Of a DNA stretch of 64,000 nucleotides, positions 9,840 to 43,578 are shown piece after piece. A model generated the notes under the pieces. The model did no database searches, was not told where the DNA came from, and worked only from the letters and a program-made list of their open reading frames with translations. Each line of letters begins with the position of its first letter. Position 1 is the first letter of the stretch. The stretch spans positions 1,026 to 65,025 of the forward strand of contig JBKAGM010000001.1 of assembly GCA_046290385.1 (NCBI GenBank). Reading direction: 5' to 3'. The translations under genes were made by a program, and so were the position numbers. This DNA comes from Gammaproteobacteria bacterium. Its GTDB lineage: Bacteria; Pseudomonadota; Gammaproteobacteria; JAGOUN01.

Positions 9840-10558
9840 TGAAGTATTCAGAAAAAGTAAAAAAATGGATATTTTTAATAGGTCTCATTCCACTATCATG
9901 TTATGCAGTAATGCCAGTCATTGACCCAAATGCAATAGAACAATTGATAAAAGAGTACAGGCAGTTAAAAAATCAATATGATTTGTTGAAAGATACATAC
10001 AATAATCAACTTGCCCAGCTTCAACAGGGTAAACAAATGGTTCAGGATGCTGAAGGGCACTACGGCTATGGAGGACTGATTAATAGCGATAGTAATTTGA
10101 AATCGCGCGAATGGTCTCCAGACAATTGGCAAGATGCATTAAAAGGTTTATCAGGAGGTAATCCTGAGCGATATCAGGAGTTAGCACTACAATATCAGAA
10201 AGCACATCCAACAATGGCATTAGATGAGTTCAAGAAAGGTTCCAGCGATGAAAATGCTGATTTGTATCAAAAAAAGTCGCAGGCAACACAAGCAGCTACA
10301 GTCAATGCAACCTACGCTTTTAATGATATTAAACAACATTTAGAAAATATTCATAAAATATCAGAAAAAATCGATACGGCTGAAAATACAAAGGCAGCCG
10401 TTGACTTGAATACACGCATGCAAACAGAAATGGCTTATGTACAAGTCCAGATGCTCAAGCAAGTTGCTATTCTTAATGAACAAATGGCAGAGCGGAGTCA
10501 AGAAGAGCTTTCTGCTGATAAACAAGCGGCAGAATTTAATCGTTTACCGGATGAATAG
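9839..10558 (+). CDS. virB5: VirB5-like minor pilus subunit
   Basis: ~239 aa from MKYSEK; signal peptide; coiled-coil-rich secreted protein in the VirB5 position; its start overlaps the virB4 stop. Confidence 0.5.
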   Translation: MKYSEKVKKWIFLIGLIPLSCYAVMPVIDPNAIEQLIKEYRQLKNQYDLLKDTYNNQLAQLQQGKQMVQDAEGHYGYGGLINSDSNLKSREWSPDNWQDALKGLSGGNPERYQELALQYQKAHPTMALDEFKKGSSDENADLYQKKSQATQAATVNATYAFNDIKQHLENIHKISEKIDTAENTKAAVDLNTRMQTEMAYVQVQMLKQVAILNEQMAERSQEELSADKQAAEFNRLPDE

Positions 10559-10581
10559 TTTTAAATATACGAGGGAAATAG

Positions 10582-26621: not shown

Positions 26622-27095
26622 GATCTGTCAAAATTGAGCGCGTTCGACATAATCTTTAACTGCTTGAATTTGATTTAGTTTTCAGTGGTAAATAATTCGT
26701 TGAAATTTTGAATTTTAGACGTGAGTATTTTGCGACGTTTAGCGCGAGTTTTATTTTTCATGTGCTTGCTATCACGATGCTTCGTTCTGCTACCAAAAAA
26801 ATTTTTGATTGCGGGAATGAGCGCAGGTTCTTTATCTGTGGTAATTTGAGCTCGAATAATCTCTGTTGTCTCATCGCTTGCTTAAAAAATACTTCTGCTG
26901 ATTTTTTCGCTAACAACATTTAAGTATAAATCTATTAATAGCCTAACCCTGCTTTGCGAGTAATTCCAGACGTCTTTTTTGAGTGGCAATGAGGACAGTT
27001 CATAATATTTTTCTTCAACAACATCATTTGTAATTATATTCCTATCAGCAACATGCTACAAATTAAAATATTGAGATGAGTTTTGACAAAACCAT
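26622..27095 (-). mobile_element. IS6-family insertion sequence remnant (copy A, internally deleted)
   Basis: Terminal IRs ctgtcaaaattgagcg (26624-26639) and gagttttgacaaaacc (27078-27093). The transposase start region is the reverse complement of 28756-28823. 26760-26940 matches the transposase 3' part and 26655-26760 matches the IS 3' non-coding end; both are also seen at 42925-43035. Confidence 0.6.
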
Positions 27096-27676: not shown

Positions 27677-28480
27677 ATGATTATTCCTTTGCGATTACTT
27701 AATTTAGAAAAACATTCATTTATTACATCATCTGAACAAATTCGTAAAATTGCAAACCCTTTGATAATTTTAGGTATACGTCATTTTGCCTATCAGAGGA
27801 AACACAAGGATGGATCTGTTGAGCTGCTTGGAACACATCCTGACTTTACAAAAAAATTTATTGAAAATAAATTATATCGACATACGTTTTGTGGTGAAAT
27901 CGAAAATTATTCTAATTGCTATGCATTTTGGGAAGATATAGATTGTAAGGAGATAATTCAGCTTGCTAAAGAAAGTTCAAATTTAACAAACGGTATCGTT
28001 GCTACAAAACCTTCTAAGAATTATTGTGACTTTTATTACTTTGCATCCTCTCCTTCTGACTCACTTACTAAAACATTTTATATTAATAATATTGAGTTGT
28101 TGGAAAAATTTATACTATATTTTAATGAGGTTGCTAAACCAATACTTAGGGTTAGCAAAAGGCAAAGAATTTTATACCCTAACTCTAATGACTTGACATT
28201 ACTCGCCTCTAAAAACGTGTTAAATATTAATGAAAAAAGTTATAGTGTAGATAAAACCTTAGATGATTTTTATTATTTAGATTTAATGCATCTCACCAAA
28301 AAAGAAACTAAGATTTGCAAATATATTAAAAATGGATATAGCTCAAAAGAAATTGCTCAATTTGAAAAACTATCATATAGAACTGTAGAAAAGCACATAG
28401 ATCATATAAAACAAAAATTTATGTGTGATTCAATATTAAAATTGATACACAAATTAAATATATCACCAAAAAAACTCTAA
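27677..28480 (+). CDS. LuxR-family transcriptional regulator (solo type, no receiver domain)
   Basis: C-terminal LuxR-type HTH (ETKICKYIKNGYSSKEIAQFEKLSYRTVEKHIDHIKQKF); ~200-aa N-terminal putative ligand-binding domain. Confidence 0.7.
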   Translation: MIIPLRLLNLEKHSFITSSEQIRKIANPLIILGIRHFAYQRKHKDGSVELLGTHPDFTKKFIENKLYRHTFCGEIENYSNCYAFWEDIDCKEIIQLAKESSNLTNGIVATKPSKNYCDFYYFASSPSDSLTKTFYINNIELLEKFILYFNEVAKPILRVSKRQRILYPNSNDLTLLASKNVLNINEKSYSVDKTLDDFYYLDLMHLTKKETKICKYIKNGYSSKEIAQFEKLSYRTVEKHIDHIKQKFMCDSILKLIHKLNISPKKL

Positions 28481-28664: not shown

Positions 28665-29610
28665 GGGTTTTTTCAAAACTCAGCCCAACATTTTAATTTG
28701 TAGCGTGTTTCTGATAAGAATATAATTACAAATGATGTTGTTGAAGAAAAATATTATGAACTGTCCTCATTGCCACTCAAAAAAGACGTCTGGAATTACT
28801 CGCAAAACAGGGTTAGGCTATTTGCAATATCGTTGTTCAGACTGCGGTAGGCAGTTTAATGAACGTAGCGGCACCCCACTGAATTTTATAGAGCATCCTA
28901 CCGAAGTGGTCATGATTGCCATTCATTACTATTATCGCTTTAAAGTTAGCCTGGATGATGTGGTGGAGCTCATGATGATGCGTGGATTTCATATGAGTCA
29001 TCAAATGGTTCATAACTGGACCAAACGTTTGGTGTTGACTTAGGGTTAAAATGTCATACAAAACGTAAAAGATTTTCTGGGAACAAGTGGCATGTTGATG
29101 CAACGTATTTACGTATTGAAGGTCGTTAGTGCTATTTCTACAGAGCGATAGATAAAGCAGGTTATTTAGTGGATGTCTACTTAAGTGATGTGCGTGATCA
29201 AAAATCAGCAGGAGCCTTTTTTAAACAAGCGATAGAAACAACAAGGATTATTCCAGTTCAAGTTACGACAAATAAAGGGCTTGTGCTTACTCTCGCAATT
29301 AAGAGTGTTTTTGGTCGTAAACGTAGCATCATGATAGTAAGCATATGAACAACTCTTGAGTAGCCCTATCGTGCTATTTAGTCACGCTATAAAGTTACAA
29401 AATTATTCAAAAACATTTTCAATGCCTTAATATTTTATAAGGCTATTGAAGAAGCATGCCGATTATTTCGCATGAAAATAAAACACCCACCACAAGCCCT
29501 AGAATACTCATGTAAAAATTTAAAATTTCAAAAAACACATTACCAAAGAAAACTAAACCAAGTTCAAGTGCTTAAATATTGCTCCGAAGGTGCAGAGTTT
29601 TTACAGAACC
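28665..29610 (+). mobile_element. IS6-family insertion sequence, full length (~945 bp)
   Basis: imperfect terminal IRs ggttttttcaaaactcagccc (left) and gcagagtttttacaga (right, reverse complement); internal IS6-type transposase gene. Confidence 0.7.
28732..29347 (+). pseudogene. IS6-family DDE transposase with an N-terminal zinc finger; disrupted
   Basis: WHVDATYLRI...YFYRAID...VDVYLS matches the IS26/IS6 core; a frameshift near 29040 and an in-frame TAG near 29126 break the reading frame. Confidence 0.7.
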
Positions 29611-29946
29611 TTATCGTCTAAAGATATGTTTCTTTTTCTTATTATGTAATGTGAAGAATAAATAATATTATAAGTAGGAGTCGTTACAAGTGAAATATAA
29701 AAATCAGTATTTTTTACGGTTATCTTTAAAAAATAAATAAATATAATTTGTATTACCTAAGTGAAAAACTACTTTTATAGAAATAAAAGTTTATATATGA
29801 ATTTATAATGGAGTTTGTTATGAATGTTGATTTGGCAAGAAATTTTCAAAGCTTCACTAAAACTAGAAATTTATTGAATTTCATGGGATATCCTAGTGCT
29901 GATTCCAAAGATTATAGTTTTTCTGAAGAATTTAAATCAGGGGGGC

Positions 29947-30786
29947 ACTATGGAAGCTTTCAAGTTGAATAATCTTAAACTTATTGAGGAAGCAATTAGT
30001 TTATCAAAACAATACAATATTGATATTGATCGATTTATTGAGTGTCGAGGAATCATGCGCTTACCTGATTCAGAGATTAGGGGAATGGTTGATTTATGTG
30101 CGGAATCTAAAAAAGGATTAGTAATGTCAATCGGTCCACGAGCTACAAATGATATAGGAGCTTTTTCATTTACTGAAAATGGTAAGCGTGTTGGTTATCG
30201 TAATCGAGGAATGGAAAATATTATCTATGCATTGGAAGAGGTGCAGCGCGGTATAGAACTAGGGGTTCGTGGATTTTTGTTATATGACGAAGGGTTATTG
30301 TATCTATTAAATAAAATGCGTGAGAAAGATGTACTTCCTAAAGAGATATCTTTCAAATACTCAGTGCATGCTGCCTGTAGTAATCCAATATCTGCAAGGT
30401 TACTAGAAGATAACGGAATTGATAGTATTAATTTAATGCCTGATGTTGATTTAAATATGTTATCAGCTTTTCGTAAAGCAGTGAGTGTCCCATTAGATCT
30501 ATTTTCAGATACTGCAAAAGCTGCTGGCGGGTTTATTCGAACTTATGAAGTAGCAGAAATGATACGACTTGCTTCACCGGTTTACTTAAAATGTGGTCCT
30601 GTTTCTCAGCCTCAGCAAAATCATTTGCCTTCGCCAGTGGAGTTAGAGGAAAGAGTAAAGCAAGCACGAAATGTGGTTGAGCATATTCAAAGATATTTAC
30701 CAGAAGCAAAACGTGTAAGCTCTAATGAATTTACATTAGCACTCCCAAAAACAGTTCTAGAATCCATCCAGAAAAAGGTTGCTTAA
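29947..30786 (+). CDS. hypothetical enzyme, possibly TIM-barrel-like; first gene of the cluster
   Basis: ~280 aa from MEAFKL; no confident family assignment. Confidence 0.35.
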   Translation, partial: TMEAFKLNNLKLIEEAISLSKQYNIDIDRFIECRGIMRLPDSEIRGMVDLCAESKKGLVMSIGPRATNDIGAFSFTENGKRVGYRNRGMENIIYALEEVQRGIELGVRGFLLYDEGLLYLLNKMREKDVLPKEISFKYSVHAACSNPISARLLEDNGIDSINLMPDVDLNMLSAFRKAVSVPLDLFSDTAKAAGGFIRTYEVAEMIRLASPVYLKCGPVSQPQQNHLPSPVELEERVKQARNVVEHIQRYLPEAKRVSSNEFTLALPKTVLESIQKKVA

Positions 30787-32476
30787 GGGGAAAAAGAAAA
30801 TGAAAAATTGGAAAGAATCTTGGAATGATAATTCTCGAACCTTTAAAAAGTATTGTGCTCAGCAAAAGCTTAAATTCCAAAAAGGATTGGAGTGTCCTGA
30901 GAAAGCACAGAGAGATGTATTAGATGATATTTTATCAATCACGCAGGCAAGCGAATTCGGACGAGAACATAAGCTTAAGCAAGTTAAGGATATCAAATCA
31001 TTACGTAATAATGTACCTATTCGTAGTTATGATCAATATAAGCCTTGGATTGAGCGCGAAATTTTAGCTAAAGGGGGCGTGCTCAGTACTGCCAAATTAG
31101 TGAGATGGCTAAAAACGAGTGGATCTACGGGGAGCTCTAAGAAAATCCCATATTCAATTCATTGGATGGAGAATTATCGTAGTCAAGCACTAGGAGTCTT
31201 GTGGGCAAGCTATTTGGAGGCAGCACCAGAGATATTATCTCATCCATATGCAATACTGGATACACAAACGATTCGTGAAAAAATCTCTAGTAATCTAAAT
31301 GGGTTACCATATCAAGGAATTACCAACAGAAATCCAATTTTAAGTAATCTTGATTGGATGCCTCCTTGGGCTAACGCACCGTGGATGACAGATGATGTTC
31401 CAAATGGTTATGAAAATCGAATGTATTATCGTCTAAGATATTTTCTTGGTCAAGATCTTCGTGTAATTACTGCCATTAATCCAAGCACTCTTGTAGCGAT
31501 GCATTTACATTTAAGAAAGTTTTTACCAATGCTTGTTAAAGAAGTACATAACGGCACATTTATAGGAAAAAAAATCTTTGTACCAAATTCCGAATTAGCA
31601 GAAAAAATATCTAGTTTTACAGAAAGTAGTTCGCTTACAGATATATGGCCTAACTTATCACTCATTACTTGTTGGACAACAGCATCTGCCAAATTATATA
31701 AACCACAGCTTGATTTAATATTCCCGGGAGTAAAAGTATTGCCATTTATGACATGCGGTACAGAAGGAGTAGTGACACTTCCAGCTGATTTAAAAAATCA
31801 AGTAGGAGTGTTAGCCATAACGCAAGGTTTTTATGAATTTATTCCGGCAGAAATAGATTTAGAGAGTTGTTTAGGAAAAGATTCATCTGTTAAAACGTTG
31901 TTATTCAATGAGCTTGAGTTTGGTAAGGAATATCATTTAATAATGTCACAAGCAAATGGTCTTTATCGATTAGCAGTTGGAGATGTTTATAAAGTTATAG
32001 GTTTTGTTGGAAGCGTTCCTCGTATTGAATTTGTTCGTAGACATGGAACTTATTTTTCATTTACAGGTGAAAAAATTACAGAGTCACAAATGCTTGATTC
32101 TGTAGAAAGTGCAATAATCCATTCTAGTAATAAAGTTGGTCTATTTATGTGTTTTCCTGTATGGGGTGATATACCTTATTACAGAATATTAATCGAAACA
32201 GATTCATATAATGATGTGGTGGCTTCTGTAGAAATGGCCAGATTAATTGATACTAAACTATCGGAGATTAATGAAGAATATCAAAGTAAACGTGCAAGTC
32301 ATCGACTAGGAAAGGTAGAAGTATCATTTATTAAAACTGGTGTAATCAATAACTATTTAGAAGATAAAAAGAGTGGTGCCAACGCAACACAATATAAATA
32401 TAAACCTCTCCAAACAGATTTTAATTTGTGTAGTAAGTTGCTATCTGCAAGTAACTTCCAGGAGGTTATGTTGTGA
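30779..32476 (+). CDS. GH3-family adenylate-forming acyl-acid amido synthetase
   Basis: 565 aa; adenylation motif TSGSTGSSKKIPY, analogous to the GH3/JAR1 TSGTT..K.IP motif. Confidence 0.7.
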   Translation: MLKGKKKMKNWKESWNDNSRTFKKYCAQQKLKFQKGLECPEKAQRDVLDDILSITQASEFGREHKLKQVKDIKSLRNNVPIRSYDQYKPWIEREILAKGGVLSTAKLVRWLKTSGSTGSSKKIPYSIHWMENYRSQALGVLWASYLEAAPEILSHPYAILDTQTIREKISSNLNGLPYQGITNRNPILSNLDWMPPWANAPWMTDDVPNGYENRMYYRLRYFLGQDLRVITAINPSTLVAMHLHLRKFLPMLVKEVHNGTFIGKKIFVPNSELAEKISSFTESSSLTDIWPNLSLITCWTTASAKLYKPQLDLIFPGVKVLPFMTCGTEGVVTLPADLKNQVGVLAITQGFYEFIPAEIDLESCLGKDSSVKTLLFNELEFGKEYHLIMSQANGLYRLAVGDVYKVIGFVGSVPRIEFVRRHGTYFSFTGEKITESQMLDSVESAIIHSSNKVGLFMCFPVWGDIPYYRILIETDSYNDVVASVEMARLIDTKLSEINEEYQSKRASHRLGKVEVSFIKTGVINNYLEDKKSGANATQYKYKPLQTDFNLCSKLLSASNFQEVML

Positions 32477-33378
32477 TAGAAAACAAACGAAAAAAATCGT
32501 TTAATTATTCAGTTTGCTCAATTGAATCAGACGGGGCCAAGCTAGCTTTACATAGTTGGGTGCCAGAAAAACCAAAAGCAATGGTTTATTACATACACGG
32601 TATTCAAAGCCATGCTGGTTGGTTGTTTGAAACAGGTTCTTATTTTGCAGAAAAAGGCATAGCAGTTTTTGTGGTTGATCGTCGTGGTTCTGGGAAAAGT
32701 GAAGGAATTCGTGGAGATATAGGAAACCATTTTCAATTACTCAATGACTATTTAAAAATATTAAGAATTATTCGATCATTATATATTCAATTACCACTTA
32801 CACTGATTGGGCAAAGTCTAGGAGGTTCTATTTTGTCAGCTTTATTGGCATTGCCAGATTATGATGTTGAATATAACAAAGTAGTTTTTTGTGCATCGGC
32901 ACTTGGAAAAAAGCATAATGAGGTGAGTGCAATTGATTATGCTCGAGTTATATCCGAAAGTAGCATGGATCTCATTGATATCCCTATCAAAGATGAGGAT
33001 TTCTCGGATCAAAGTAAGTATTTAGATTTCATAAGTTCTGATCCACTACTCTATCGAAAGATAACTAAAAGATCACTAGCAAGTTTGTTGTTAATGGAAA
33101 ACCTTTATCTATCGAAGCCTGGGTTACTATCAGAAAAGCAAGCTGTTTACGTTTGTCCAGAGGAAGATCCAATCGTGAATTTGGATTATTCAATTTCAGT
33201 GTTCCAGAAATTAACAAATGAGCATGGAGAAGTAAAAAGGTTTCAAACTTATAAACACTACCTTTGGTTTACTGATCAATCAATGTTAGTTCATCAGTGG
33301 ATAGTTAACTGGATTTTGTCTACTAAGAAGGAGGTGTTGCATGAAGATTTCGATATATCAAGTAGTACCGCAGCTTAG
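32473..33378 (+). CDS. alpha/beta-fold hydrolase (lysophospholipase/thioesterase-like)
   Basis: HG oxyanion motif (HGIQSHAGW); nucleophile elbow GQSLGGS. Confidence 0.7.
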   Translation: MIENKRKKSFNYSVCSIESDGAKLALHSWVPEKPKAMVYYIHGIQSHAGWLFETGSYFAEKGIAVFVVDRRGSGKSEGIRGDIGNHFQLLNDYLKILRIIRSLYIQLPLTLIGQSLGGSILSALLALPDYDVEYNKVVFCASALGKKHNEVSAIDYARVISESSMDLIDIPIKDEDFSDQSKYLDFISSDPLLYRKITKRSLASLLLMENLYLSKPGLLSEKQAVYVCPEEDPIVNLDYSISVFQKLTNEHGEVKRFQTYKHYLWFTDQSMLVHQWIVNWILSTKKEVLHEDFDISSSTAA

Positions 33379-34516
33379 TGTCGCTTTTGGGCACGCAGAA
33401 ACTGTAAGAAAGAATGCTGAAAGCATTGTCATTAGTGTTGAATATAAAGGTATAAGAGCAATTGGTGAGTGTGCGCCTAGAGAATATGTTACAGGTGAAA
33501 CACTTGACCGAGTTTTTAATACGCTCCAAATTATACCATATAAGAATATTTTAAGAAGTATAGACCAACCAACCTTGATAATGGCAATTGATGCATTTAT
33601 TAAGTGGGACTTAAATAAGCTTACATCTTCTAATAATGCAACGTGTGCACTTGAACTGTTATTTTTGGATTGGCTTGGTCAACGATTTAAAATCCCCGTG
33701 TGTGAAATACTTTACAAATTCTATTTCGGCGCTTCAAAATTAAAGGAAGATTTAGTTTTTAAGACTAGTCAGGTATTGGATTTAGCGATAGATGTGAAAT
33801 ACTTTTTAGAAAATAGAGCTCCTTTCCATACAGTTAAAATTAAAGTTGATGGAGATTTAGAAAAAAATATAGAAAGAGTTTCAAAAATCAGAAGCGCAAT
33901 TGGTAAAGATGTGCCGATTATAGTCGATGCAAATATGTCTTGGACATTATCAGAAGCAATTAGACAAATAAATTATTTAAAAAAATACGATATTTCATTT
34001 TTTGAAGAGCCATTAAAAAAAGGTGCTTTTAAAGAATACGCTATTTTAAAAAAAATAACAGAATTAAAAATATTGCTTGATGAGTCAGTTTGCTCAGCTG
34101 ATGATGCATTAGTGGCAATTCGATTAAATGCGTGTGATGCATTCAACGTTCGTATTTCTAAGTGTGGAGGTATTCGAAATGCTCTAGATATAGTCCGAAT
34201 CGCGCGTATCAATAATCTTCAATTTCAAATAGGGGCCCAAGTAGCTGAGGTTGGGCCGCTAATTGCTGCAGGTAGACATTTGCGAAGTATTGTAGATGAT
34301 GCCATAACATTTGAAGCTGGACAGCCAGAACGTTGGTTTAGAGATTATTTGGTAACCCCTATGCCCCTTGTGGATAGAAGTACAAATTTAACTGGATTCT
34401 TACTAAAACCAGGTTTGGGAGTTGAACTAACAAGGTTCATAAAAAGTTGTTCAGAAAAGATGGCATTATGGAATGATAAAAGCAAACGATTTACTGAGGA
34501 GCATAAAATAACATGA
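33341..34516 (+). CDS. enolase-superfamily enzyme, MR/MLE subgroup (dipeptide epimerase/OSBS/N-acyl amino acid racemase-like)
   Basis: KIKVDG (KxK), DANMSW, FFEEP and LLDES metal-ligand motifs in the canonical order. Confidence 0.8.
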   Translation: MKISIYQVVPQLSVAFGHAETVRKNAESIVISVEYKGIRAIGECAPREYVTGETLDRVFNTLQIIPYKNILRSIDQPTLIMAIDAFIKWDLNKLTSSNNATCALELLFLDWLGQRFKIPVCEILYKFYFGASKLKEDLVFKTSQVLDLAIDVKYFLENRAPFHTVKIKVDGDLEKNIERVSKIRSAIGKDVPIIVDANMSWTLSEAIRQINYLKKYDISFFEEPLKKGAFKEYAILKKITELKILLDESVCSADDALVAIRLNACDAFNVRISKCGGIRNALDIVRIARINNLQFQIGAQVAEVGPLIAAGRHLRSIVDDAITFEAGQPERWFRDYLVTPMPLVDRSTNLTGFLLKPGLGVELTRFIKSCSEKMALWNDKSKRFTEEHKIT

Positions 34517-36243
34517 ACCGCGTAGATAAGTATAATTCTGATTTATTAGTTGATTTATTGAAGTCTCATAAAATAGATTTTATTACGGCTAATCCAGGAT
34601 CAACGATTAGAGGATTATATGACTCTATCATCAATGATAAGAGCGATGAAAATATAGAATTAATACTCTGTTGTCATGAAGAAATTAGTGTTGCTCTTGC
34701 GCATGGATATGCAAAAATTTCTGGTAAACCGATGGTGGTTTTGTTACACGGAAATATCGGGCTTTTGCATGCAAGTATGGCAATTTTCAACGCTTGGGTA
34801 GATCGAGTGCCTATGATAATTATAAATGGTATAGGTCCTATGGCTGTTGAAAAAAGAAGACCATGGATTGATTGGATTCATACATCACAGAATCATGCTA
34901 ATGTATTACAAGGTATTGTAAAATGGCAGGATCAACCTGCTAGCTTTCCAAGTGTTGTTGAGTCTTTTAAAAGAGCATATAAGCTTACTAATATTTCACC
35001 TCAAGCACCAGTATATCTCACTATTGATGCAGCGGTTCAAGAAGAAATAACTGCTGAGTCGGATTTAAACTTGCTTCCATTGAAATTGCCCCTAAATGGT
35101 CAAGCTGATGAGCACTCATTACGGCTCTTAGCCAAAAGTTTATCTTTAGCGAGCAATCCTCTCATAATAGTAGATCATATGGGTAGAGTGCCTGAGAGTA
35201 TTAACTATCTGATTGAAATAGTCGAAGAGTTACAAATACCTGTTATAGATTGCGGAGGTCGGTATAATTTTCCAAATACACATCCACTATGCTTAACAGG
35301 TATGCCGTCAGAATTCTATCAAGAAATAGATTTTGTTTTAGCAATTGACGTTGCAGATCTGTCAGCAGCGTTACAAAAATTTTCCAAAGATATTGAAATT
35401 TATCGAATAGACCTTAATGATTCATTGGTTAGCAGTTGGGTAGCAGATTATTGTGAAAATATTGATGTTAAATGTCATATAAATTCTGACAGTAGCGTTA
35501 CACTTCCGGTTTTGCTTGATTACTGTAGACAAATCATTCCCAAAATTAATTTATCAAGTTTGCAAAATCGAGGCGATGTTTGGAGACAGAGACATTATGA
35601 TTTACGTGAACAATGGATTCAAAAATCAAAACAATTGTCGCGTGGTAAGCGACTTTCAGTTTTGTCTGTTTTTGATAAGTTTTGGAATGTAATTCGATTT
35701 GAAGATTGGGTAGTAGTCAATGATGCTAGCATTCCTATGGGTAAGCAGTTAAGGAAAATATGGAAATTTGAGCATGATGGTTGCACTATTGGAAATAGCG
35801 GGGGTTGTGGATTGGGATATGGTATAGGTGCCTCCATTGGAGCAGCTTTAGCTTTAAAAAACACGGGAAAAATTGCCATTGGTTTTCAAGGTGATGGAGA
35901 TTTTTTGTTTACACCTAGTGCATTATGGACAGCCGCGCATTACAAAGTATCACTTCTTATTGTCATTATGAATAATGGCGGATATCAGAATACAGCTAAA
36001 CATGCGCATGAAGTTTCACAACAACGATCTAGATCAATGAAAAAAATTATGATTGGTAACGCTATTACAGATCCTAATGTAAATTATTTTAAACTTGCAA
36101 ATTCTTTTGGAGTTGCTGCATTACCTGCAATCGAGAAAATAGACGAAATTATTCCATCAGTACGTAAAGCCATAGATTATATTAAAGAAAATAAAAAACC
36201 ATTTTTATTAGAAATTAAGGTGGGGGATAAATATGAAAATTAA
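34513..36243 (+). CDS. thiamine-diphosphate-dependent enzyme of the ALS/PDC/Xsc family
   Basis: 576 aa; TPP motif GDGDFLF...NNGGY; three-domain length. Confidence 0.75.
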   Translation: MNRVDKYNSDLLVDLLKSHKIDFITANPGSTIRGLYDSIINDKSDENIELILCCHEEISVALAHGYAKISGKPMVVLLHGNIGLLHASMAIFNAWVDRVPMIIINGIGPMAVEKRRPWIDWIHTSQNHANVLQGIVKWQDQPASFPSVVESFKRAYKLTNISPQAPVYLTIDAAVQEEITAESDLNLLPLKLPLNGQADEHSLRLLAKSLSLASNPLIIVDHMGRVPESINYLIEIVEELQIPVIDCGGRYNFPNTHPLCLTGMPSEFYQEIDFVLAIDVADLSAALQKFSKDIEIYRIDLNDSLVSSWVADYCENIDVKCHINSDSSVTLPVLLDYCRQIIPKINLSSLQNRGDVWRQRHYDLREQWIQKSKQLSRGKRLSVLSVFDKFWNVIRFEDWVVVNDASIPMGKQLRKIWKFEHDGCTIGNSGGCGLGYGIGASIGAALALKNTGKIAIGFQGDGDFLFTPSALWTAAHYKVSLLIVIMNNGGYQNTAKHAHEVSQQRSRSMKKIMIGNAITDPNVNYFKLANSFGVAALPAIEKIDEIIPSVRKAIDYIKENKKPFLLEIKVGDKYEN

Positions 36244-36949
36244 TGTATTGCAGCATATAGGTGATAATAGTACATCTTTAGAAAAAGTTGTAGTAGTGAT
36301 CGATCAATATAGGGCTAGCTCTACTATTGTTACGGCGCTAGCTAATGGCGTTCAAAAAATAATACCATGTCTTTCGCTAGAGGAAGCGTTAGCAAAAAAA
36401 GCGCTTAGTGAATATAAAAATTTCTTAGTCTTGGGTGAGCAAAATGCTAGAAAATCAGAAAAGGCCTCACTAGGTAATTCACCTCTTCCATTCACTGTAA
36501 AAAATCACGGCATTAAAGAAATTTTAATGGCAACTACAAATGGAACAAAAGCATTGAAGCGCGCACAACATGCTCAAAAAATTATGTTGTGTAGCTTTTT
36601 AAATCTTTCCGCCATAGCAGAAAAGTTAATAAAATGTGATTCAGATTTTACAATTCTTTGTTCAGGCTCTAAAGGAAAGTTTTGTTTAGAAGATGTAATC
36701 TGCGCAAGCCTATTGATACAGCGTATTCAAAAAAAAGAAAGTTGTTTTTTTATAGATGATTTTACACGACTTGTTGCGGCATTAAATGAAGATCAGCAAT
36801 CTTTATTATGTGAAAGTAAATCATATAAGAAGTTAAAGAGTTTGGGATTTAATAGCGATTTAGACTTTTGTGATCAACAAGATTTGTATGAATCTGTACC
36901 GGTTTATTTAAAAACAGGTTTTATCAAGGAGTGTAAAAATGATAGGTAG
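36233..36949 (+). CDS. ComB-family (2-phosphosulfolactate phosphatase-like) phosphatase
   Basis: 238 aa; VVVIDQYRASSTI and LGNSP motifs match ComB-family signatures as recalled from memory. Confidence 0.5.
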   Translation: MKINVLQHIGDNSTSLEKVVVVIDQYRASSTIVTALANGVQKIIPCLSLEEALAKKALSEYKNFLVLGEQNARKSEKASLGNSPLPFTVKNHGIKEILMATTNGTKALKRAQHAQKIMLCSFLNLSAIAEKLIKCDSDFTILCSGSKGKFCLEDVICASLLIQRIQKKESCFFIDDFTRLVAALNEDQQSLLCESKSYKKLKSLGFNSDLDFCDQQDLYESVPVYLKTGFIKECKNDR

Positions 36950-38486
36950 ATTAAAAAATAAAAAACGAGAAGATGAAGTTCTGCTTTTAAGTGAAGGGCA
37001 AGGTGTAGAGGAGGATAGGGATCAGAATGATAGTAATGGAGAGTTAAGCGCCCATGGCATGTTTCTTGATTTAATTATTAATGGTTGGACTTTTAGCGCT
37101 GTTCGTATTCCTGATATGGCAGTAGAAATCATTGAGGGAGCTATTTTTTCCCGATTAGGACGAAATTATCTTGCAGCTGATGGTTTTATAGTTATAGAAC
37201 ATCGTGTATTTGCCACTACTGCATTAGGCGTTATTTTTGGTCTTGGTAATCTGCTAGATGAAGTAAAAGATGACTCTGTGCGACGTGGCCAAGTTTTTCG
37301 GCAAATATTTATTTTAGCGTTAGCTTTGAGTATCCCTGTCACCGCACTTTTAGCAATGAGCGAGCCAATTTTGATAGCACTTGGACAAAATAGAGATGTT
37401 GCTAAGATAACAGGTAATTTTTATATCGCTGCGCTAGTAAATACACCATTTTATATAGTTTTTTCTTCACTGCAACTATTATTCTTGACGTTGGGCCGTT
37501 CTGGTACTGGACTCAAGCTCAACTTTATCAACAATATTTTGAGTGTCATATTGAGCGGATTGCTTGCTCTTGGTTCAGGAAGCATTCCCCAGCTAAATGA
37601 ATGGGGAATGGGATTGGGTAGAAGTCTTTCGTCTATTATTATGGTGGGTGTAATTTCAATTGTACTCTACCGTGATAGTGTACAGCGAGAATCTCTCTTC
37701 AGCTGGACTCTTGGTGAAACTCAGTTTTTCCGCATGTTAAAACTAGGGCTGCCATATGGTGTTCAAGTTGGATCAGATTTTTTAATGCAATATGTGTTGG
37801 CGATATTGCTAGGTCGTATTGGAAAGAATGCATTAGCTGAAGCACGTGTTGCTGATATGGTCTATATGATTCCATTTGTGATGTTAGCTAGGTCGCCTCA
37901 AATCGTCGCGGCTCATGCTAGAACCGCAAAAGAAAATCAGAATCAAGGATATATAAAAAGATCAATGTTAATCAGCAGCTTAACTAATGGAGTGGCAGTG
38001 GGTATATGGATATTGATAACGAGTATTGGCGCAGATCCATTATTAAAGTATGTATTTGATTTGGATTCTCATAAAGAAAATGATTCCAAGATTATTTCTG
38101 GAGCTAAATTTTTAATGTTTATGACAGGGATTACTTTATTATCAGAGGTGGTTCGTTTTGTTTCAGGTTCTGTGCTTAGAGGGCTTGAAGACACAGTATC
38201 ACCTATGATTAATAGTATTGTTGTTCTTGATATCTTAGGGATAACCGTGCTGCTGACAGCTGCGCTGGGTTTTAATTTGGATGAAGAGGCGTTATATGGT
38301 ATTAGGGCAGCTATTATGTTTCTCGCATCTATGACGATTACAGCGTATGCAACACATATAGTAAAAGGGATACCACAGTTAAGCCAGTCAAATTATGCTA
38401 TCTGGAACGAAAATAATTTGGCTCCTTTAGTGTTAGAGAACGTAGTTGAAGATGATATAGAAGAAGGAGTTAAAAATGGTCAATAG
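36939..38486 (+). CDS. MATE-like polytopic efflux transporter
   Basis: 515 aa; ~12 TM helices in two halves; ~50-aa N-terminal cytoplasmic extension. Confidence 0.45.
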   Translation: MIGRLKNKKREDEVLLLSEGQGVEEDRDQNDSNGELSAHGMFLDLIINGWTFSAVRIPDMAVEIIEGAIFSRLGRNYLAADGFIVIEHRVFATTALGVIFGLGNLLDEVKDDSVRRGQVFRQIFILALALSIPVTALLAMSEPILIALGQNRDVAKITGNFYIAALVNTPFYIVFSSLQLLFLTLGRSGTGLKLNFINNILSVILSGLLALGSGSIPQLNEWGMGLGRSLSSIIMVGVISIVLYRDSVQRESLFSWTLGETQFFRMLKLGLPYGVQVGSDFLMQYVLAILLGRIGKNALAEARVADMVYMIPFVMLARSPQIVAAHARTAKENQNQGYIKRSMLISSLTNGVAVGIWILITSIGADPLLKYVFDLDSHKENDSKIISGAKFLMFMTGITLLSEVVRFVSGSVLRGLEDTVSPMINSIVVLDILGITVLLTAALGFNLDEEALYGIRAAIMFLASMTITAYATHIVKGIPQLSQSNYAIWNENNLAPLVLENVVEDDIEEGVKNGQ

Positions 38487-39204
38487 CTTGAAAGATAAAA
38501 AAATTGTCGTAATAGGTGGGAGTTCTGGTATTGGGTTTGAGACAGCAAAGTTATTTGCAGAATCGGGATCAAATGTTGTAATAGGTGGGCGAGATCAAGC
38601 AAAACTTAATCGTAAAAAAATAGAGCTAAGGGGAAACGTTGAAGCATTTTCAATTGATATTATGAATCTTGATTCTGTTCAGTTTTTTTTTGAGCGTGTT
38701 GGAAAATTTGATCACCTACATATTCCAGCAAGTAATATGAAGACCGGTAGTTTAAAAGATTTTGAAATTGCACTGGCAAGGCAATCTTTTGATAGTAAAT
38801 TTTGGGGTCCATATCAAGTTGCTAAAATAGCTTTGTCTTATTTATCTGACGTGGGCTCAATGACTTTTTTTTCTGGTGCGTATAGTCAGCGTCCTATTGC
38901 TTCAGGAGCTGCGATTGGATCAGCAATTAATAGTGCTATTGAAGGACTCGTTAGAGCTCTTGCGGTTGAATTGGCGCCTATTCGTGTTAATGCTATTTCA
39001 CCAGGACTTACAATGACTGAGCGATTTACTGAGAATTATTCACCAGAAGCACTAAAAGCATTAACAGAAAATTTTTCAGAGCACTTATTAATTAAGCGGC
39101 CAGCTGAATCAACAGAGGTTGCGTTAGCTGCTAAATATTTAACTGAGTGTTCTTATGTGACTGGTACAACATTATTTGTTGATGGTGGGTTGTCTTTACA
39201 TTGA
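38476..39204 (+). CDS. short-chain dehydrogenase/reductase
   Basis: IGGSSGIGFETAK Rossmann motif. Confidence 0.75.
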   Translation: MVNSLKDKKIVVIGGSSGIGFETAKLFAESGSNVVIGGRDQAKLNRKKIELRGNVEAFSIDIMNLDSVQFFFERVGKFDHLHIPASNMKTGSLKDFEIALARQSFDSKFWGPYQVAKIALSYLSDVGSMTFFSGAYSQRPIASGAAIGSAINSAIEGLVRALAVELAPIRVNAISPGLTMTERFTENYSPEALKALTENFSEHLLIKRPAESTEVALAAKYLTECSYVTGTTLFVDGGLSLH

Positions 39205-39210
39205 TGAAAA

Positions 39211-40047
39211 ATGAAGGGGAAAATTATGAAAAATAGTATAGTTATGAATGGTGGTACGCTTCAGCATTTATCTTTGATAAATGCTCTTAAGGTAACAAAG
39301 GATTCAGGTTATGATGGCTATGGTGTATGGTCAAACCAAATTTGCTCATCATTCGGCCATCATAATCAAGATGAATATTGTCAAATAATCATAGAAAGTG
39401 GGTTATCTATTCCTGAGATAATTTGGTTAAAGCCTTGGTTATATGTGAATGGTGAAGAGAAAAAGCAATCTATAAGTGATATTGAAAATCTATGCCAAGT
39501 TGCTAAGAAAATCAATGCTAGGATTATTACTGCACCAACTTATGGAGTATCGAATGATATTCAGTTAGCACAAAATAACTATAAAGATTTTTGTGATATT
39601 GCAGCCTGCTATGAATTAAAAGTTGGGTTGGAGTTTGTACCCATTTTTACTATTGATAGTTTGCTTTCAGCTTATGCATTGGTGCAAGCAGTAGATAGAA
39701 ATAATAGCGGAATCATTATTGATACTTTCCATGTTTTTAAAGGGAGCACTTCGCTAAGCGATATACAAAAAGTACCTGTTGAAAAAATGTTGTTGGTTCA
39801 TTTGTGTGATTTTAATGATGAAGATCCTTGTGGTGATATTCTATTTGAAGCTCGAAATAAGCGATTATCTCCAGGTAGAGGTGTATTTGATCTGCAGAGC
39901 TTTATTAGTGAAATGACAATACATGGTTATGAAGGATCATATTCGTTAGAAGTGTTGAATCAAAATAATCGCAATATAAATTCAGAAAGTTTTTCAATTA
40001 GTATCTTAAAGGATGCTAAAAATATTTTAGGTGTGAAAAGGAGATAG
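39211..40047 (+). CDS. xylose-isomerase-like TIM-barrel protein (sugar-phosphate isomerase/epimerase family)
   Basis: GLEF, DTFH and HLCD metal-ligand motifs. Confidence 0.65.
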   Translation: MKGKIMKNSIVMNGGTLQHLSLINALKVTKDSGYDGYGVWSNQICSSFGHHNQDEYCQIIIESGLSIPEIIWLKPWLYVNGEEKKQSISDIENLCQVAKKINARIITAPTYGVSNDIQLAQNNYKDFCDIAACYELKVGLEFVPIFTIDSLLSAYALVQAVDRNNSGIIIDTFHVFKGSTSLSDIQKVPVEKMLLVHLCDFNDEDPCGDILFEARNKRLSPGRGVFDLQSFISEMTIHGYEGSYSLEVLNQNNRNINSESFSISILKDAKNILGVKRR

Positions 40048-40051
40048 AAGC

Positions 40052-41695
40052 ATGAAAGAATTAGAGAATAAACAATTAGCTAAGCGTATTCGTGAGTCAA
40101 TTATTGAAACAGCTTCAGAAGGGGGATTTCATTTTTCTTCAAGTTTGGGTGTAGTAGAGCTCGTTATAGCTCTATACCGAGTATTTGATTTTGAGAAGAA
40201 TCAAGTTGTTTTCGATGTGGGGCATCAGCGATTTCCTTATTTAATGTTAAGAGATGGTCATTTCAATGTGCCTCACTATGAAGATTACAGCATGTTTATT
40301 TATCCTGGTTTTGCCGGGCTTTCGGCAGCATCAGCTGAAGGGCTATCAGTGAATGACCCTGAAAATAAAGTTATTGCTGTTATTGGAGACGGTTCACTGA
40401 CTTGTGGTGAAGTATTTGAATCATTAAATAACATTGGAGCTCATCAAAGTAATGTTTTGGTGGTGCTCAATGAAAATGGTCAATCGATTGTTGATAATGT
40501 TGGTGCACTTAGCGATGGAAAGTCTGTAAGGCAGTATGCGGAATCTTTAAAGTTTGAATATATAGGTACAGCGGATGGTCACAATACAGAACAGTTAGTT
40601 GAAATATTGGAAGGTCTCAAGCAAAAAAAGCATCCTGTGTTTTTGCATGTAATTACTCAAAAAGGTAAAGGTTATTTGCACTCTGAATCAAATCCAGCTT
40701 TATATCACCGTCCGACGACTTCATTTGATGTGCATACAGGTAAGATTTTGCCAAATCAAGATGTTGCAAAGGCAATGATGGGGGAATCGCTAGACATATT
40801 ACAGAAAAAAAGTTTAGCTATGTTAGAAAAAGGTGAAAGTTTATATTTAATCTCTCCTGCCTGTCCTTTATTTCCAAAAGTTGCAGAAAAATATCCTAAA
40901 AACGTTTTTGATACTGGGATCAGTGAACAGCATTGTATGACTTTTTCTACAACACTGGCAGCAAAAGGAAATAAGGTGATTTGTACAATCATAGCTCCAT
41001 TTTTATCGCGTTGTTATAGTCAAATTTTAGACCTTGCACATCAAAATGCACCATTAGTTATCTCTGTTCCTATGATGGGAGCAAATGCTCTTGGTTCAAC
41101 TCATCAAGCTGTGCATATGTTAGGCGCCCTGAGGCAAATTCCAAATTTATCAATTGTACATGCAATCAATATGAAAGAATATGAGATGTTGTTAGATGAG
41201 ATGTTGGAAGTCGGTAAGCCTGGTATTCTGTTTGTTCCTAAAGAGAATGTGCCATGTGAGGTGGTTGATAATTATGAATATGGGAAGGGGTTTATTTTAA
41301 GAGAAGGATACGCCGCAACGATATTGCCTATTGGCTCAATGTTTTCGATTGCAATTCAATTAGCAGAAAAATATGAGGGCATCGAAATTATTAACCCAAG
41401 GTACTTAAAACCATTGGATTTAGAATTGTTGTTTTCTAGTATTAAAAAAACTGGAAGGTTGTTAATTTTAGAGGATGGACTTAAAGTGGGTGGTTTAGGT
41501 GAAGAAGTAATATCGAAAATATTTGCGTCTATGCCGCATGTTCATTGCAAACATATTGGGTACACAAGCTTATTTCCTAAATATGAAGCATATGATAAAG
41601 CTATTAAAGAATATGATTTTTCATTCGTACGATGTATGAATACACTATCAGAGCTTTTGCAACTAGAAAAGCGAGGTTATCTCAAGTGTGCTTAA
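40052..41695 (+). CDS. DXS-like transketolase-family TPP enzyme
   Basis: GGFHFSSSLGVVEL...DVGHQ and IGDGSLTCGEVFESLNNIG...VLNENGQSI align closely with the 1-deoxy-D-xylulose-5-phosphate synthase signature regions. Confidence 0.8.
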   Translation: MKELENKQLAKRIRESIIETASEGGFHFSSSLGVVELVIALYRVFDFEKNQVVFDVGHQRFPYLMLRDGHFNVPHYEDYSMFIYPGFAGLSAASAEGLSVNDPENKVIAVIGDGSLTCGEVFESLNNIGAHQSNVLVVLNENGQSIVDNVGALSDGKSVRQYAESLKFEYIGTADGHNTEQLVEILEGLKQKKHPVFLHVITQKGKGYLHSESNPALYHRPTTSFDVHTGKILPNQDVAKAMMGESLDILQKKSLAMLEKGESLYLISPACPLFPKVAEKYPKNVFDTGISEQHCMTFSTTLAAKGNKVICTIIAPFLSRCYSQILDLAHQNAPLVISVPMMGANALGSTHQAVHMLGALRQIPNLSIVHAINMKEYEMLLDEMLEVGKPGILFVPKENVPCEVVDNYEYGKGFILREGYAATILPIGSMFSIAIQLAEKYEGIEIINPRYLKPLDLELLFSSIKKTGRLLILEDGLKVGGLGEEVISKIFASMPHVHCKHIGYTSLFPKYEAYDKAIKEYDFSFVRCMNTLSELLQLEKRGYLKCA

Positions 41696-41717: not shown

Positions 41718-42938
41718 ATGAAAATTAAAATAAAATTTAAAAAAACGTCAATAATGGTTTTATTATTTTTCGTTCCATTTTTGATGGGGATGGGCGTGGA
41801 TTTATATGTCCCTTCATTGCCAGCTATCGCTATATTTTATCAAACTGATCCACATTGGGTACAATTAACAATAGGTCTTTACATGTTGGGCTATGGAGTT
41901 GGGCAGCTTTTTCTTGGGGTTCTTTCAGATAGTTTAGGACGTAAGAAAATAATGTTGATGAGTGGTATTTCATATGTCATTATTAGTTATGTTGCGAGTG
42001 TTTCGCCTGAGGTTTGGTTTTTAAATCTAGCGCGATTTATTCAAGGTTTTGGTATTGCTGGATTGGGAGTTGCTGTTCGTGCTGTTGCAAGTGATTGTTT
42101 TAATGATCTAGATTTAACAAAAGCATTAACATGCTTTTCCATGAGTTGGGCTTTAGGCCCAATTATAGGACCATTTTTAGGAAGTTATTTACAACATTTC
42201 TTTGGCTGGAAGGCAAATTTTTATTTTTTCGCTATCTATGGTGCAATTATTACATTTTATATTGTGCTCTTTATACCTGAGACAATTGAAACGAGGCATC
42301 CATTACATCTTAAAATACTTTATAATAGTGCTAAGGTAATATGTAAAAATAAAACTTTTATTGCTGCATCGCTAATTGCTTCTTTAGTTTATTCAGTTTT
42401 AGTCTTATTTAATGTCGTTGGCCCATTTTTAATTCAGAAGGTGCTTCATTATACAGTTATCGACTATGGTCGTTTTGCGCTGATTCTTGGTGTTGCCTAC
42501 TTTTTGGGTAATTTTAGTAATCGGATATTGGTTAATTACTGTAGTCCTGTACGAATAGTATATATTACTCTATTGTTGAGCTTGGTTATATCTATAGCAA
42601 TGTTACTTTTAGCATTGATAGTAGGGTCTTGCATCGTTGTTGTATTGGCTCCAGTCTTCTCGATTTTTTACTTATCAGCAATGATGTTGCCTAATATGGT
42701 TTCAAAATCAGTTGGAATGTTTCCCAAGCAAGGAGGGACTGCAAATGCTATTTGTGGGACAGTCGTCGCATTAGGTGTATTTATCATGTCTAGTTTTGCC
42801 AGCAGTTTAAAAATACACTCACAAATGCCACTAGCGATTATGTATATGGTTATCCTATTTGCTTCACTGATGATATTTTCAGTGTATATCAAAAAAAATG
42901 ATTCTGTCAAAACTCAGTGCGCTCGACTCAATCTTTAA
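41718..42938 (+). CDS. MFS drug-efflux-type transporter (Bcr/CflA-like); its 3' end runs into an IS inverted repeat
   Basis: 406 aa; 12 TM; the last ~12 codons and the stop lie within the IS6 terminal repeat at 42903-42920. Confidence 0.75.
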   Translation: MKIKIKFKKTSIMVLLFFVPFLMGMGVDLYVPSLPAIAIFYQTDPHWVQLTIGLYMLGYGVGQLFLGVLSDSLGRKKIMLMSGISYVIISYVASVSPEVWFLNLARFIQGFGIAGLGVAVRAVASDCFNDLDLTKALTCFSMSWALGPIIGPFLGSYLQHFFGWKANFYFFAIYGAIITFYIVLFIPETIETRHPLHLKILYNSAKVICKNKTFIAASLIASLVYSVLVLFNVVGPFLIQKVLHYTVIDYGRFALILGVAYFLGNFSNRILVNYCSPVRIVYITLLLSLVISIAMLLLALIVGSCIVVVLAPVFSIFYLSAMMLPNMVSKSVGMFPKQGGTANAICGTVVALGVFIMSSFASSLKIHSQMPLAIMYMVILFASLMIFSVYIKKNDSVKTQCARLNL

Positions 42939-43578
42939 GTGCTTGAACTTGATTTAGTTTTTTGTGGTAAATAGTTCGTTAAAATTTTGAATTTTAGACA
43001 TGAGTCTTCTGTGACGTTTAGCGCGTGTTTTATTTTTTATTAGAAGTAATTGTCATATTCTTCGAATGTCGTACAAAATATTAATACACTAAAATCGCTC
43101 TGTAGAAATAACACCGAAGATCATCAATACGTAAATACGTTGCATCAATATGCCATTTGTTCCGAGAAAACCCTTTGCGTTTTGCGCGACATTTTAACCC
43201 TAACTCAACACCAAACGTTTGGGTCCAGTTATGGATCGTTTGATGACTCATATGAAATCGGCGCATTATTATGAGCTCTACCACATCATCCTGGCTGACT
43301 TTAAACCGATAATAGTAATGAATAGCGATCATTACCATTTCGGCAGGATGCTTGATAAAATTCAGTGGGGCGCAGCTACGTTCATTAAACTGCCTACCGC
43401 TCAGTCTGAACAACGATATTGCAATTAGCCTAACCCCGTTGAGTAATTCCAGACGTCTTTTTTGAGTTTCAATGAGCACAGTTCATAGGTTTTTTCTCCA
43501 ACATCTTTATTTGTGATTATATTCTTATAAGCAACACGCTACAAATTACAATGTTAGACTGAGTTTTGACTAAGCCAG
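42903..43578 (-). mobile_element. IS6-family insertion sequence remnant (copy B, internally deleted)
   Basis: IRs ttctgtcaaaactcagtgc (42903-42920) and gagttttgactaagcc (43561-43576). The transposase N-terminus and part of the core (43081-43479) are in one frame with no frameshift. Confidence 0.65.

Follow-up and report, generated by a model that had tools for sequence, protein, structure and literature searches.

Genes of the ComB family are widespread among bacteria that lack coenzyme M synthesis, and their products are uniformly labelled '2-phosphosulfolactate phosphatase' in databases. One such gene lies in a 64,000-nucleotide stretch of gammaproteobacterial DNA (contig JBKAGM010000001.1; hereafter the window), and it raises the question of what the enzyme dephosphorylates there and which protein makes its substrate. 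In the coenzyme M pathway, known from Methanococcales, Methanobacteriales and Methanopyrales, ComB works in the series ComA-ComB-ComC-ComDE (PMC5695019). The gene in the window, here g6, is the sixth of an 11-gene same-strand operon (g1 to g11; Table 1), and our analysis points to the first gene of that operon, g1, which encodes a TIM-barrel protein of ~300 aa, as its conserved partner. We favour, at a probability of about one in two, a reading in which g6 is a divergent ComB partnered with g1, the two genes forming a module that supplies a dephosphorylated 2-hydroxy or 2-oxo acid.

A first-pass annotation of the window, made from the letters alone, had called g6 ComB-like on the strength of its motifs. 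A profile search with the ComB family model PF04029 bore this out, since g6 matched model positions 10-223 of 226 with an E-value of 1.5e-62 and 211.2 bits, against a cutoff of 26.4 bits. The gene is preceded by an AGGTGG Shine-Dalgarno sequence just 5' of its start, and its product carries VVVIDQYRASSTI at aa 20-32, LGNSP at aa 80-84 and TTNGT at aa 101-105, as well as A28, G68-E69 and E153-D154; the D-x-x-R-A, G-E, G-N-S-P, T-T-N-G and E-D motifs of ComB are all present. Among 116 relatives of g6, the positions D24, R27, G81-N82-S83-P84 and T101-T102-N103-G104 were 99-100% conserved, so that GNSP and the other motifs cited by the annotation are indeed diagnostic of the family, a point on which it had allowed that it might be wrong. 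All family-invariant residues (D24, R27, E69, N82-S83-P84, T101, N103-G104, G145, D154 and D209) are kept in g6, and the ComB-like proteins of known structure 2yyv and 1vr0 matched it with E-values of 1.4e-40 and 3e-37. The nearest relative in a set of 5.8 billion proteins is nevertheless only ~43% identical, the score with the NCBIfam equivalog model TIGR00298 is 137.6 bits against a cutoff of 175.05, and g6 stays under the curated cutoff in all eight ComB models of NCBIfam. Together, these data characterise g6 as a genuine but divergent member of the ComB family and a predicted, catalytically intact Mg-phosphatase.

The partner that ComB has in the coenzyme M pathway was not found. None of the 11 cluster proteins, six flanking proteins and 28 further window open reading frames (ORFs) matched the ComA family PF02679, and a ComA hidden Markov model (HMM), derived from a 32-sequence alignment built from the true ComA-ComB pair of a Firmicutes genome (L094), reached 11.5 bits at best against the six-frame translation of the window, compared with 437.7 bits for the positive control. 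The earlier statement that the cluster has no ComA partner thus holds across the 64-kb window, and so does its companion claim that the first cluster gene is not ComA: comparison of g1 with ComA gave a BLASTP E-value of 0.71 and an hhalign probability of 1.45%, and PF02679 matched one of 50 g1 family members, at E 0.14. Any kinship of g1 with ComA would therefore seem limited to the common barrel fold. ComA was likewise absent within 10 kb in all 93 loci fetched (L001-L093), a set that holds every g1-ComB locus. In a separate set of 81 metagenomic ComA loci (L095-L174 among them), a ComB-family gene lay within about 4 kb in only 10, and ComA and ComB are therefore usually non-adjacent in bacteria.

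What does accompany ComB is g1. The two genes belong to one overlapping operon in the window, and ComB was found beside g1 or in the same operon in 14 of 16 distinct bacterial g1 loci, which represent four architectures. Type A, the GH3 type, has the six-gene core g1-GH3-hydrolase-MLE-TPP-ComB, where TPP denotes a thiamine pyrophosphate enzyme, and the core is present in the same order in the window, in Vibrio mangrovi (L002), in Serratia plymuthica (L004), in a metagenome-assembled genome (MAG) of a Coxiellaceae member (L010), in a gammaproteobacterial MAG (L012) and in L090; L012 shares g9, g10 and g11 with the window as well. Type B, from Burkholderiales and Rickettsiaceae MAGs and one metagenome contig, reads g1-ComB-TPP-cupin-(EamA)-ABM-(DAO or FMN_dh)-MFS. 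Type C, from Desulfobacteraceae, places the pair between a cytidylyltransferase (CTP_transf_3) and a GT29-like glycosyltransferase, in the order cytidylyltransferase-g1-ComB-glycosyltransferase, and type D, which is Myxococcota-type, reads Bac_transf-MurJ-ComB-g1-MurL/Mur ligases. Types B, C and D, which came to light through a g1-alignment scan of reference genomes and context look-ups, occur without the rest of the six-gene core. The first-pass annotation had set the first cluster gene aside once it proved not to be ComA, and this dismissal has to be reversed, given that g1 is the conserved genomic partner of ComB in four architectures. Because the partnership is conserved across these architectures, g1 is the likeliest source of the ComB substrate. 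The association has an obligate look, and g1 and ComB together look like a portable two-gene module.

The two genes also diverge in step. Pairwise distances among 14 loci were strongly correlated between g1 and ComB (r = 0.914, Mantel p = 0.0002), which is consistent with co-inheritance of g1 and ComB as a pair. Of the two, g1 is by far the better conserved, as the window copies are 66-67% (g1) and 41-42% (ComB) identical to those of the Vibrio, Serratia and Coxiellaceae clusters, and the most divergent pair is that of type C, with 54% identity for g1 and 26% for ComB. In the literature on ComB in gene clusters, on bacterial GH3 clusters and on the GH3 enzyme OlsH, we found no description of the cluster, of the g1 family or of the g1-ComB link. 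The ComB family is already known; the g1-linked subgroup, the g1 partner and the g1-ComB module are what is new.

The ComB family splits into three context classes with residue signatures of their own, namely ComA-linked, g1-linked and unpartnered H197-type proteins. To describe these signatures, 14 g1-linked ComBs were aligned with 11 ComA-linked ComBs (a small sample, taken from the 81 metagenomic ComA loci) and 115 other close relatives. The residues D24, R27, E69, N82-S83-P84, G104, G145 and D154 were kept in all three groups, T101 and N103 were each replaced in one g1-linked ComB, and D209 was replaced in one ComA-linked ComB. Class differences, as far as sequence alone can tell, lie at the putative pocket positions 70, 78, 86 and 197. 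Position 197 is H in 115/115 of the other relatives, in 0/11 ComA-linked ComBs and, depending on how they are aligned, in 0-1/14 g1-linked ComBs (S in the window); position 86 is E in 114/115, 10/11 and 2/14 of the same groups (P in the window); position 78 is F in 115/115, 11/11 and 6/14 (A in the window); and position 70 is R in 115/115, 7/11 and 6/14 (Q in the window). Loss of H197 appears to mark 'partnered' ComBs generally, and the idea that only g1-linked ComBs have lost H197 and R70 was rejected because the ComA-linked protein P0065 and ten more also lack H197. The loss of E86 and F78, on the other hand, separates g1-linked from ComA-linked ComBs and therefore argues for a substrate that is not phosphosulfolactate.

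In a distance-based neighbour-joining tree the g1-linked ComBs fell into three clades without other members, and none of these was sister to the clades of the ComA-linked proteins, which share with g6 the family and the missing H197 and have ComA instead of g1 as their partner, as in the Firmicutes pair L094. Against class profiles, g6 scored lowest with the ComA-linked profile (203 bits), followed by the g1-linked (229 bits) and the other-relative profiles (241 bits). Its closest relatives are unpartnered ComB-like proteins (Thermotoga 2yyv, Clostridium acetobutylicum 1vr0 and Ignavibacteria; 37-43% identity), which differ from it in keeping R70, F78, E86 and H197 (99-100%) and in their housekeeping contexts. 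All four H197-class loci checked were of this kind, with neither ComA nor g1 nearby, and in two Ignavibacteria-type loci (L006 and L177) the H197-type gene sits in an identical block between a GCV_T-family gene and ftsK, which suggests that these genes have a conserved function in core metabolism with no relation to coenzyme M. The first-pass annotation had offered two ways out for a ComB without ComA, a different 2-phospho acid as substrate or a donor encoded elsewhere, and the former is the better of the two in view of P86 and A78, the score below the TIGR00298 cutoff and the lowest score falling on the ComA-linked profile.

The g1 family comprises more than 1200 proteins without a Pfam domain, 50-74% identical to the window copy among the best 120 matches listed, and its hosts include culturable Serratia and Vibrio species as well as intracellular Coxiellaceae and Rickettsiaceae, often with the gene on mobile DNA. 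AlphaFold modelled the V. mangrovi homolog with confidence as a (beta/alpha)8 barrel (pLDDT 90.6, pTM 0.89). A structural search returned generic TIM-barrel matches only, for which reason the model structure was rejected as a guide to g1 function, and a profile search against PDB sequences gave no match. The nearest relatives are the U32 'peptidase' and CutC TIM barrels: PF01136 (peptidase U32) gave weak matches in 46 of 50 family members, the window g1 itself falling under the gathering score (17.3 vs 22.4 bits), identity in structural alignments is only 11-16%, and the genomic contexts of these proteins are wholly different. The invariant residues of the family include many Arg, Asp, Glu and His residues as well as Cys, several of which we infer from the model to sit where the barrel strands end on their C-terminal side, a placement that would suit a metal-dependent enzyme with an anionic substrate.

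In the window, g1 is split by a frameshift. An N-terminal fragment (29808-29972) carries the family-conserved N-terminus (MEFVMNV...GGHYG) out of frame with the main ORF, which runs from an ATG at 29950 to 30786, so that the gene start of 29947 given by the first-pass annotation needed correction on both counts. The junction lies beside a run of six G (29940-29945) and what may be a tandem repeat of ATGGA that has collapsed by one unit, and adding back this 5-nt unit puts g1 in exact register with its homologs. An independent Logan contig (L001) ends inside g1.

Relatives of g1 were also seen far from the clusters described above. A conserved block in Methanobacteriaceae (L019-L089; for example L029 8397-12496 and L067 8510-12499), an archaeal operon of acid metabolism so far uncharacterised, contains a MmgE/PrpD-like gene, a g1 homolog (about 45% identical), a class-I fumarase-alpha-like gene and a short citrate-synthase-like gene. 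The Enterobacter chuandaensis plasmid NZ_CP097174.1 (L175, 78266-90004) has a distant relative of g1 (30% identity) together with a dedicated enolase, an APH-type kinase, a D-2-hydroxyacid dehydrogenase and an aminotransferase, and further with a haem-oxygenase-like iron enzyme, an M14 peptidase, an MFS transporter and a nucleotidyltransferase; this cluster looks like another small-molecule pathway. The idea that g1 is regularly accompanied by a dedicated enolase was rejected, since such an enolase was seen in this plasmid cluster alone. The contexts of g1 in the methanogens and on the plasmid all concern carboxylic, hydroxy or oxo acids.

On the reading we favour, g1 would make a phosphorylated carboxylic acid, most likely, by analogy with ComA, a 2-O-phospho-2-hydroxy acid from phosphoenolpyruvate (PEP), and ComB would strip the phosphate to leave the free 2-hydroxy (or 2-oxo) acid. 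This acid could then be oxidised by the short-chain dehydrogenase/reductase (SDR) g8 and decarboxylated or carboligated by g5, a TPP enzyme of the benzoylformate decarboxylase (BFD) type; the GH3 ligase g2 would join the acid to an amino acid, the dipeptide-epimerase-like g4 would epimerise the product, and the MATE protein g7 and the MFS protein g11 would export it, while a second building block may come from g9 and g10. The companions of the pair fit a 2-hydroxy or 2-oxo acid, since in types A and B an FMN_dh, DAO, NAD_binding_2 or SDR oxidoreductase accompanies the BFD-like TPP enzyme, and the enolase, kinase, D-2-hydroxyacid dehydrogenase and aminotransferase of the Enterobacter plasmid fit such acid chemistry too. 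A carboxylate-amidating ligase is also found with an epimerase in two architectures, as GH3 with MLE in type A and as Mur ligases with MurL in type D, and the cytidylyltransferase of type C is a further companion that works on carboxylates.

Several observations weigh against this reading. The g1 loci were sampled by similarity to the window g1 and not randomly, and common organismal phylogeny is partly behind the correlation of g1 and ComB distances. The frameshift in g1 may stem from faulty assembly or from inactivation in recent times, and the module is therefore possibly inactive in the window, unless the assembly is wrong. In 69 Methanobacteriaceae-type loci, g1 occurs without ComB within 10 kb, and the g1 family is therefore not always dependent on a ComB phosphatase. 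No dehydrogenase was seen in the type-A loci L012 and L010. Finally, we infer that g1 acts ahead of ComB and draws on PEP, two points that count against the reading, as well as what the acid is and in which order the later steps follow.

On the favoured reading, the logic of the route runs parallel to that of coenzyme M synthesis. The two systems have in common a homologous ComB and, in their presumed logic, a synthase giving a phospho-hydroxy acid, its dephosphorylation by ComB, a dehydrogenase giving the 2-oxo acid and a TPP-dependent decarboxylation. They differ in almost every component, as the window cluster has no ComA, g1 is non-homologous to it, and no ComC-type (Ldh_2) dehydrogenase and no ComDE was assigned by Pfam or NCBIfam among the cluster proteins, the candidate oxidoreductases being of SDR, NAD_binding_2, DAO and FMN_dh type and g5 being a three-domain enzyme of BFD and acetolactate synthase (ALS) type. 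The window cluster also adds a GH3 ligase, an epimerase, a hydrolase and exporters, its ComB has P86 and A78, and its host is a gammaproteobacterium. Every partner of ComB in the cluster is thus non-homologous to the coenzyme M parts. A bolder version, which we regard as doubtful, is that g1 founds a new family, without sequence kinship to ComA, that turns PEP into 2-phospho-3-substituted-lactates, and that g1-ComB, usually joined by an oxidase and a BFD-like decarboxylase, is a convergent and horizontally mobile counterpart of steps one to four of the coenzyme M pathway. If this is true, the pair would serve four or more unrelated kinds of product, namely N-acyl-D-amino-acid-like metabolites made by GH3 enzymes, small oxidised molecules, glycan units activated with CMP, and peptides that Mur ligases assemble on a lipid-linked carrier.

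Table 1. Genes of the g1-ComB cluster and flanking features in the window
Feature	Position	Strand	Evidence or remark
LuxR-family (GerE HTH) regulator, probable cluster regulator	27677-28480	+	PF00196 E 2.3e-10
Left insertion sequence remnant (inverted-repeat arm)	28666-29149		ORF 28732-29043 = transposase zinc-ribbon match
g1, TIM-barrel protein, conserved ComB partner	29808-30786	+	frameshift near 29946-29958
g2, GH3-family acyl-acid amido synthetase (ATP-dependent amide ligase)	30779-32476	+	PF03321, PF23571, PF23572
g3, alpha/beta-hydrolase (Hydrolase_4)	32473-33378	+	PF12146 E 3.4e-29; position conserved in type-A loci
g4, enolase-superfamily MR/MLE enzyme, dipeptide-epimerase-like	33341-34516	+	PF13378 E 3.7e-40
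g5, three-domain TPP enzyme, BFD/ALS-like	34513-36243	+	PF02776, PF02775
g6, ComB-family phosphatase	36233-36949	+	PF04029; ATG start, 238 aa
g7, MATE efflux transporter	36939-38486	+	PF01554; TIGR00797 94.9 bits
g8, SDR, candidate hydroxy-acid oxidoreductase	38476-39204	+	PF13561, PF00106
g9, xylose-isomerase-like TIM-barrel protein	39211-40047	+	PF01261 E 1e-21; 35% homolog, same position, L012
g10, DXS-like / transketolase-like TPP enzyme	40052-41695	+	PF13292, PF02779, PF02780
g11, MFS transporter	41718-42938	+	PF07690 E 1e-39; 51% homolog in L012
Right insertion sequence remnant (inverted-repeat arm)	43094-43576		ORF 43081-43479 (-) = weak DDE_Tnp_IS240 match

Among the neighbours, g2 has plant GH3 enzymes as its nearest solved structures (E 1.6e-25) and is 51-55% identical by tblastn to its counterparts in L002, L004, L010 and L012. 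The sole characterised bacterial GH3 enzyme is OlsH, which acts biosynthetically in the formation of ornithine lipids (PMC12493201), and g2 matched the OlsH model weakly, with 71.5 bits vs a cutoff of 620. The nearest PDB entries of g4 are the dipeptide epimerases 3q45 and 3jva, with E-values of about 2e-30. For g5, which has a homolog in all type-A and type-B loci and an intact cofactor motif (GDG-X24-NN, aa 460-488), the best PDB match was benzoylformate decarboxylase (E 3e-33), the best-aligned stretch being the N-terminal half (residues 14-266); Xsc gave only 73 bits, and no ComDE or phosphonopyruvate decarboxylase model was among its 25 best NCBIfam matches. The SDR g8 occurred in the window cluster only, among the loci fetched, and other type-A loci have an NAD_binding_2 dehydrogenase instead. 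Lastly, g10 has a 46% homolog in L012, scores under the DXS equivalog cutoff (296 vs 466 bits) and shows a weak, generic TPP-domain similarity to sulfopyruvate decarboxylase beta (E 4e-5, 23.5 bits vs a cutoff of 221.5).

A known pathway close to the oxidase and decarboxylase part of these clusters is the mandelate pathway, in which an FMN-dependent 2-hydroxy-acid dehydrogenase (MdlB) and benzoylformate decarboxylase (MdlC) act in the absence of a phosphatase or a g1-type step. Type B resembles it in that its BFD-like TPP enzyme is accompanied by an oxidase of FMN_dh or DAO type, and BFD is the nearest solved relative of g5, although their similarity is moderate at the E-value given above. The TPP enzyme had been put forward by the first-pass annotation as possibly Xsc-like or sulfopyruvate-decarboxylase-like and as a reason to consider a sulfonate or other alpha-keto-acid branch. 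An alpha-keto-acid branch does fit the conserved contexts, but g5 is BFD/ALS-like and the Xsc-like or ComDE-like assignment falls; nothing sulfonate-specific was detected in the cluster, and a sulfonate branch was rejected on these grounds and because the nearby SulP-family anion permease lies beyond the unit bounded by insertion sequence (IS) remnants.

That unit gives the cluster a mobile setting. The genes from g1 to g8 overlap by 4-38 nt, those from g8 to g11 are separated by gaps of 4-22 nt, and the inverted repeats I1, I2, I3 and I6 pair the two IS arms that flank the operon over ~480 nt with 86-95% complementarity, an arrangement that resembles a composite transposon. A third partial IS copy (27000-27093 vs 28666-28759) flanks the LuxR regulator gene, whose product shares 26% identity along its full length (E 3e-25) with the regulator that occupies the corresponding place upstream of L010, the Coxiellaceae cluster; the regulators of the Vibrio and Serratia clusters are MmyB-like. 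VirB-type type IV secretion genes (T4SS/VirB5-like, TrbL/VirB6, VirB8, CagX/VirB9, TrbI/VirB10 and a VirB11-type ATPase) and a phage-type integrase are found at 9797-16043 and 56690-57988, and the window may belong to a plasmid or to an integrative conjugative element. Given that it is bracketed by IS arms and shares the window with a type IV secretion system and an integrase, the cluster is probably mobile. Other g1-ComB clusters lie near mobile genes as well, namely a Tn3 transposase and VirB4 in a Rickettsiaceae MAG (L091) and a Mutator-family transposase in L012, which is consistent with horizontal spread of the module. A scan of promoters and terminators gave fewer matches than in shuffled sequence.

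Outside the IS-bounded unit, the SulP-family anion permease (Sulfate_transp and STAS domains, 24966-26516) lies 3.4 kb upstream, with no evidence of linkage to the cluster. Downstream, two ORFs (43989-45497, 502 aa; 45510-47660, 716 aa) gave no Pfam match at E <= 0.01 and are also present on the Logan contig L001. At 16033-20855 on the minus strand, a HAD hydrolase, a 675-aa ORF, an NTP_transf_3 nucleotidyltransferase and a protein with a class II aldolase/adducin domain are encoded in a run, which may form a cluster of its own for sugar phosphates or nucleotide sugars.

Three other explanations of the locus have to be set against the favoured one. The first, which we judge unlikely, is of the ulosonic-acid type: g1, in the manner of KdsA and the Kdn-9-P/Neu5Ac-9-P synthases, would be an aldolase or synthase that condenses a phosphorylated aldehyde or sugar with PEP or pyruvate, ComB would take the KdsC-type role of removing the distal phosphate, and the resulting 2-oxo acid would be CMP-activated, decarboxylated by the TPP enzyme or amidated. 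Its best support comes from type C, where the genes around g1-ComB match the synthase, phosphatase, CMP-activation and transfer logic of the KdsA-KdsC-KdsB and Kdn/sialic-acid pathways, and the methanogen g1 stands among enzymes of oxo- and hydroxy-dicarboxylate metabolism. A TPP decarboxylase acting directly on a 2-oxo acid would moreover explain why a dehydrogenase is not universal. Against this, type C is the most divergent g1-ComB pair, the fold of g1 resembles aldolases no more than many other TIM barrels, and the phosphatase and synthase of the established pathways are of HAD and DAHPS/NeuB type, non-homologous to ComB and g1. Characterised ComB is also reported, in a study attributed to Graham et al. 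2001, to act on 2-phospho-2-hydroxy acids and not on distal sugar phosphates.

The second explanation is that the cluster is catabolic or serves salvage, importing and degrading a phosphorylated or N-acylated amino-acid-like compound that ComB dephosphorylates on entry. The alpha/beta-hydrolase, the dipeptide-epimerase-like enzyme, the decarboxylase-type TPP enzyme and the MFS transporter would all have a place in such a scheme, as would the ligand-responsive regulators, LuxR-type in the window and MmyB-like in Vibrio and Serratia. We consider it rather improbable, since GH3 ligases consume ATP and the bacterial OlsH is biosynthetic (PMC12493201), the cluster has a MATE exporter, and types C and D place g1-ComB with anabolic partners, a cytidylyltransferase and glycosyltransferase in the one and Mur ligases and a MurJ flippase in the other. 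The last, that g6 is a canonical 2-phosphosulfolactate phosphatase (EC 3.1.3.71) served by a ComA elsewhere in the genome, so that the cluster would make or use a sulfonate, as the second alternative of the first-pass annotation had it, is very improbable. In its favour, the window shows no more than 64 kb of the genome, ComA frequently lies apart from ComB (ComB near 10 of 81 ComA loci), g6 lacks H197 as ComA-linked ComBs do and a SulP permease lies upstream. Against it, no ComA was found within 10 kb in any of the 93 loci, g6 lacks E86 and F78, which ComA-linked ComBs keep, it scores lowest with their profile (203 bits against 229-241) and below the TIGR00298 cutoff, g5 is neither ComDE-like nor Xsc-like, the SulP gene lies beyond the IS-bounded unit, and the conserved g1 linkage would be left unexplained.

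For the family, the favoured reading of a ComB partnered with g1 means that the name '2-phosphosulfolactate phosphatase' is probably wrong for the g1-linked ComBs. The presence of a partner family of more than 1200 members in culturable Serratia and Vibrio makes the role of such orphan ComBs directly testable, and if g1 is a new PEP-utilising synthase, the clusters that carry it would define new small-molecule pathways.

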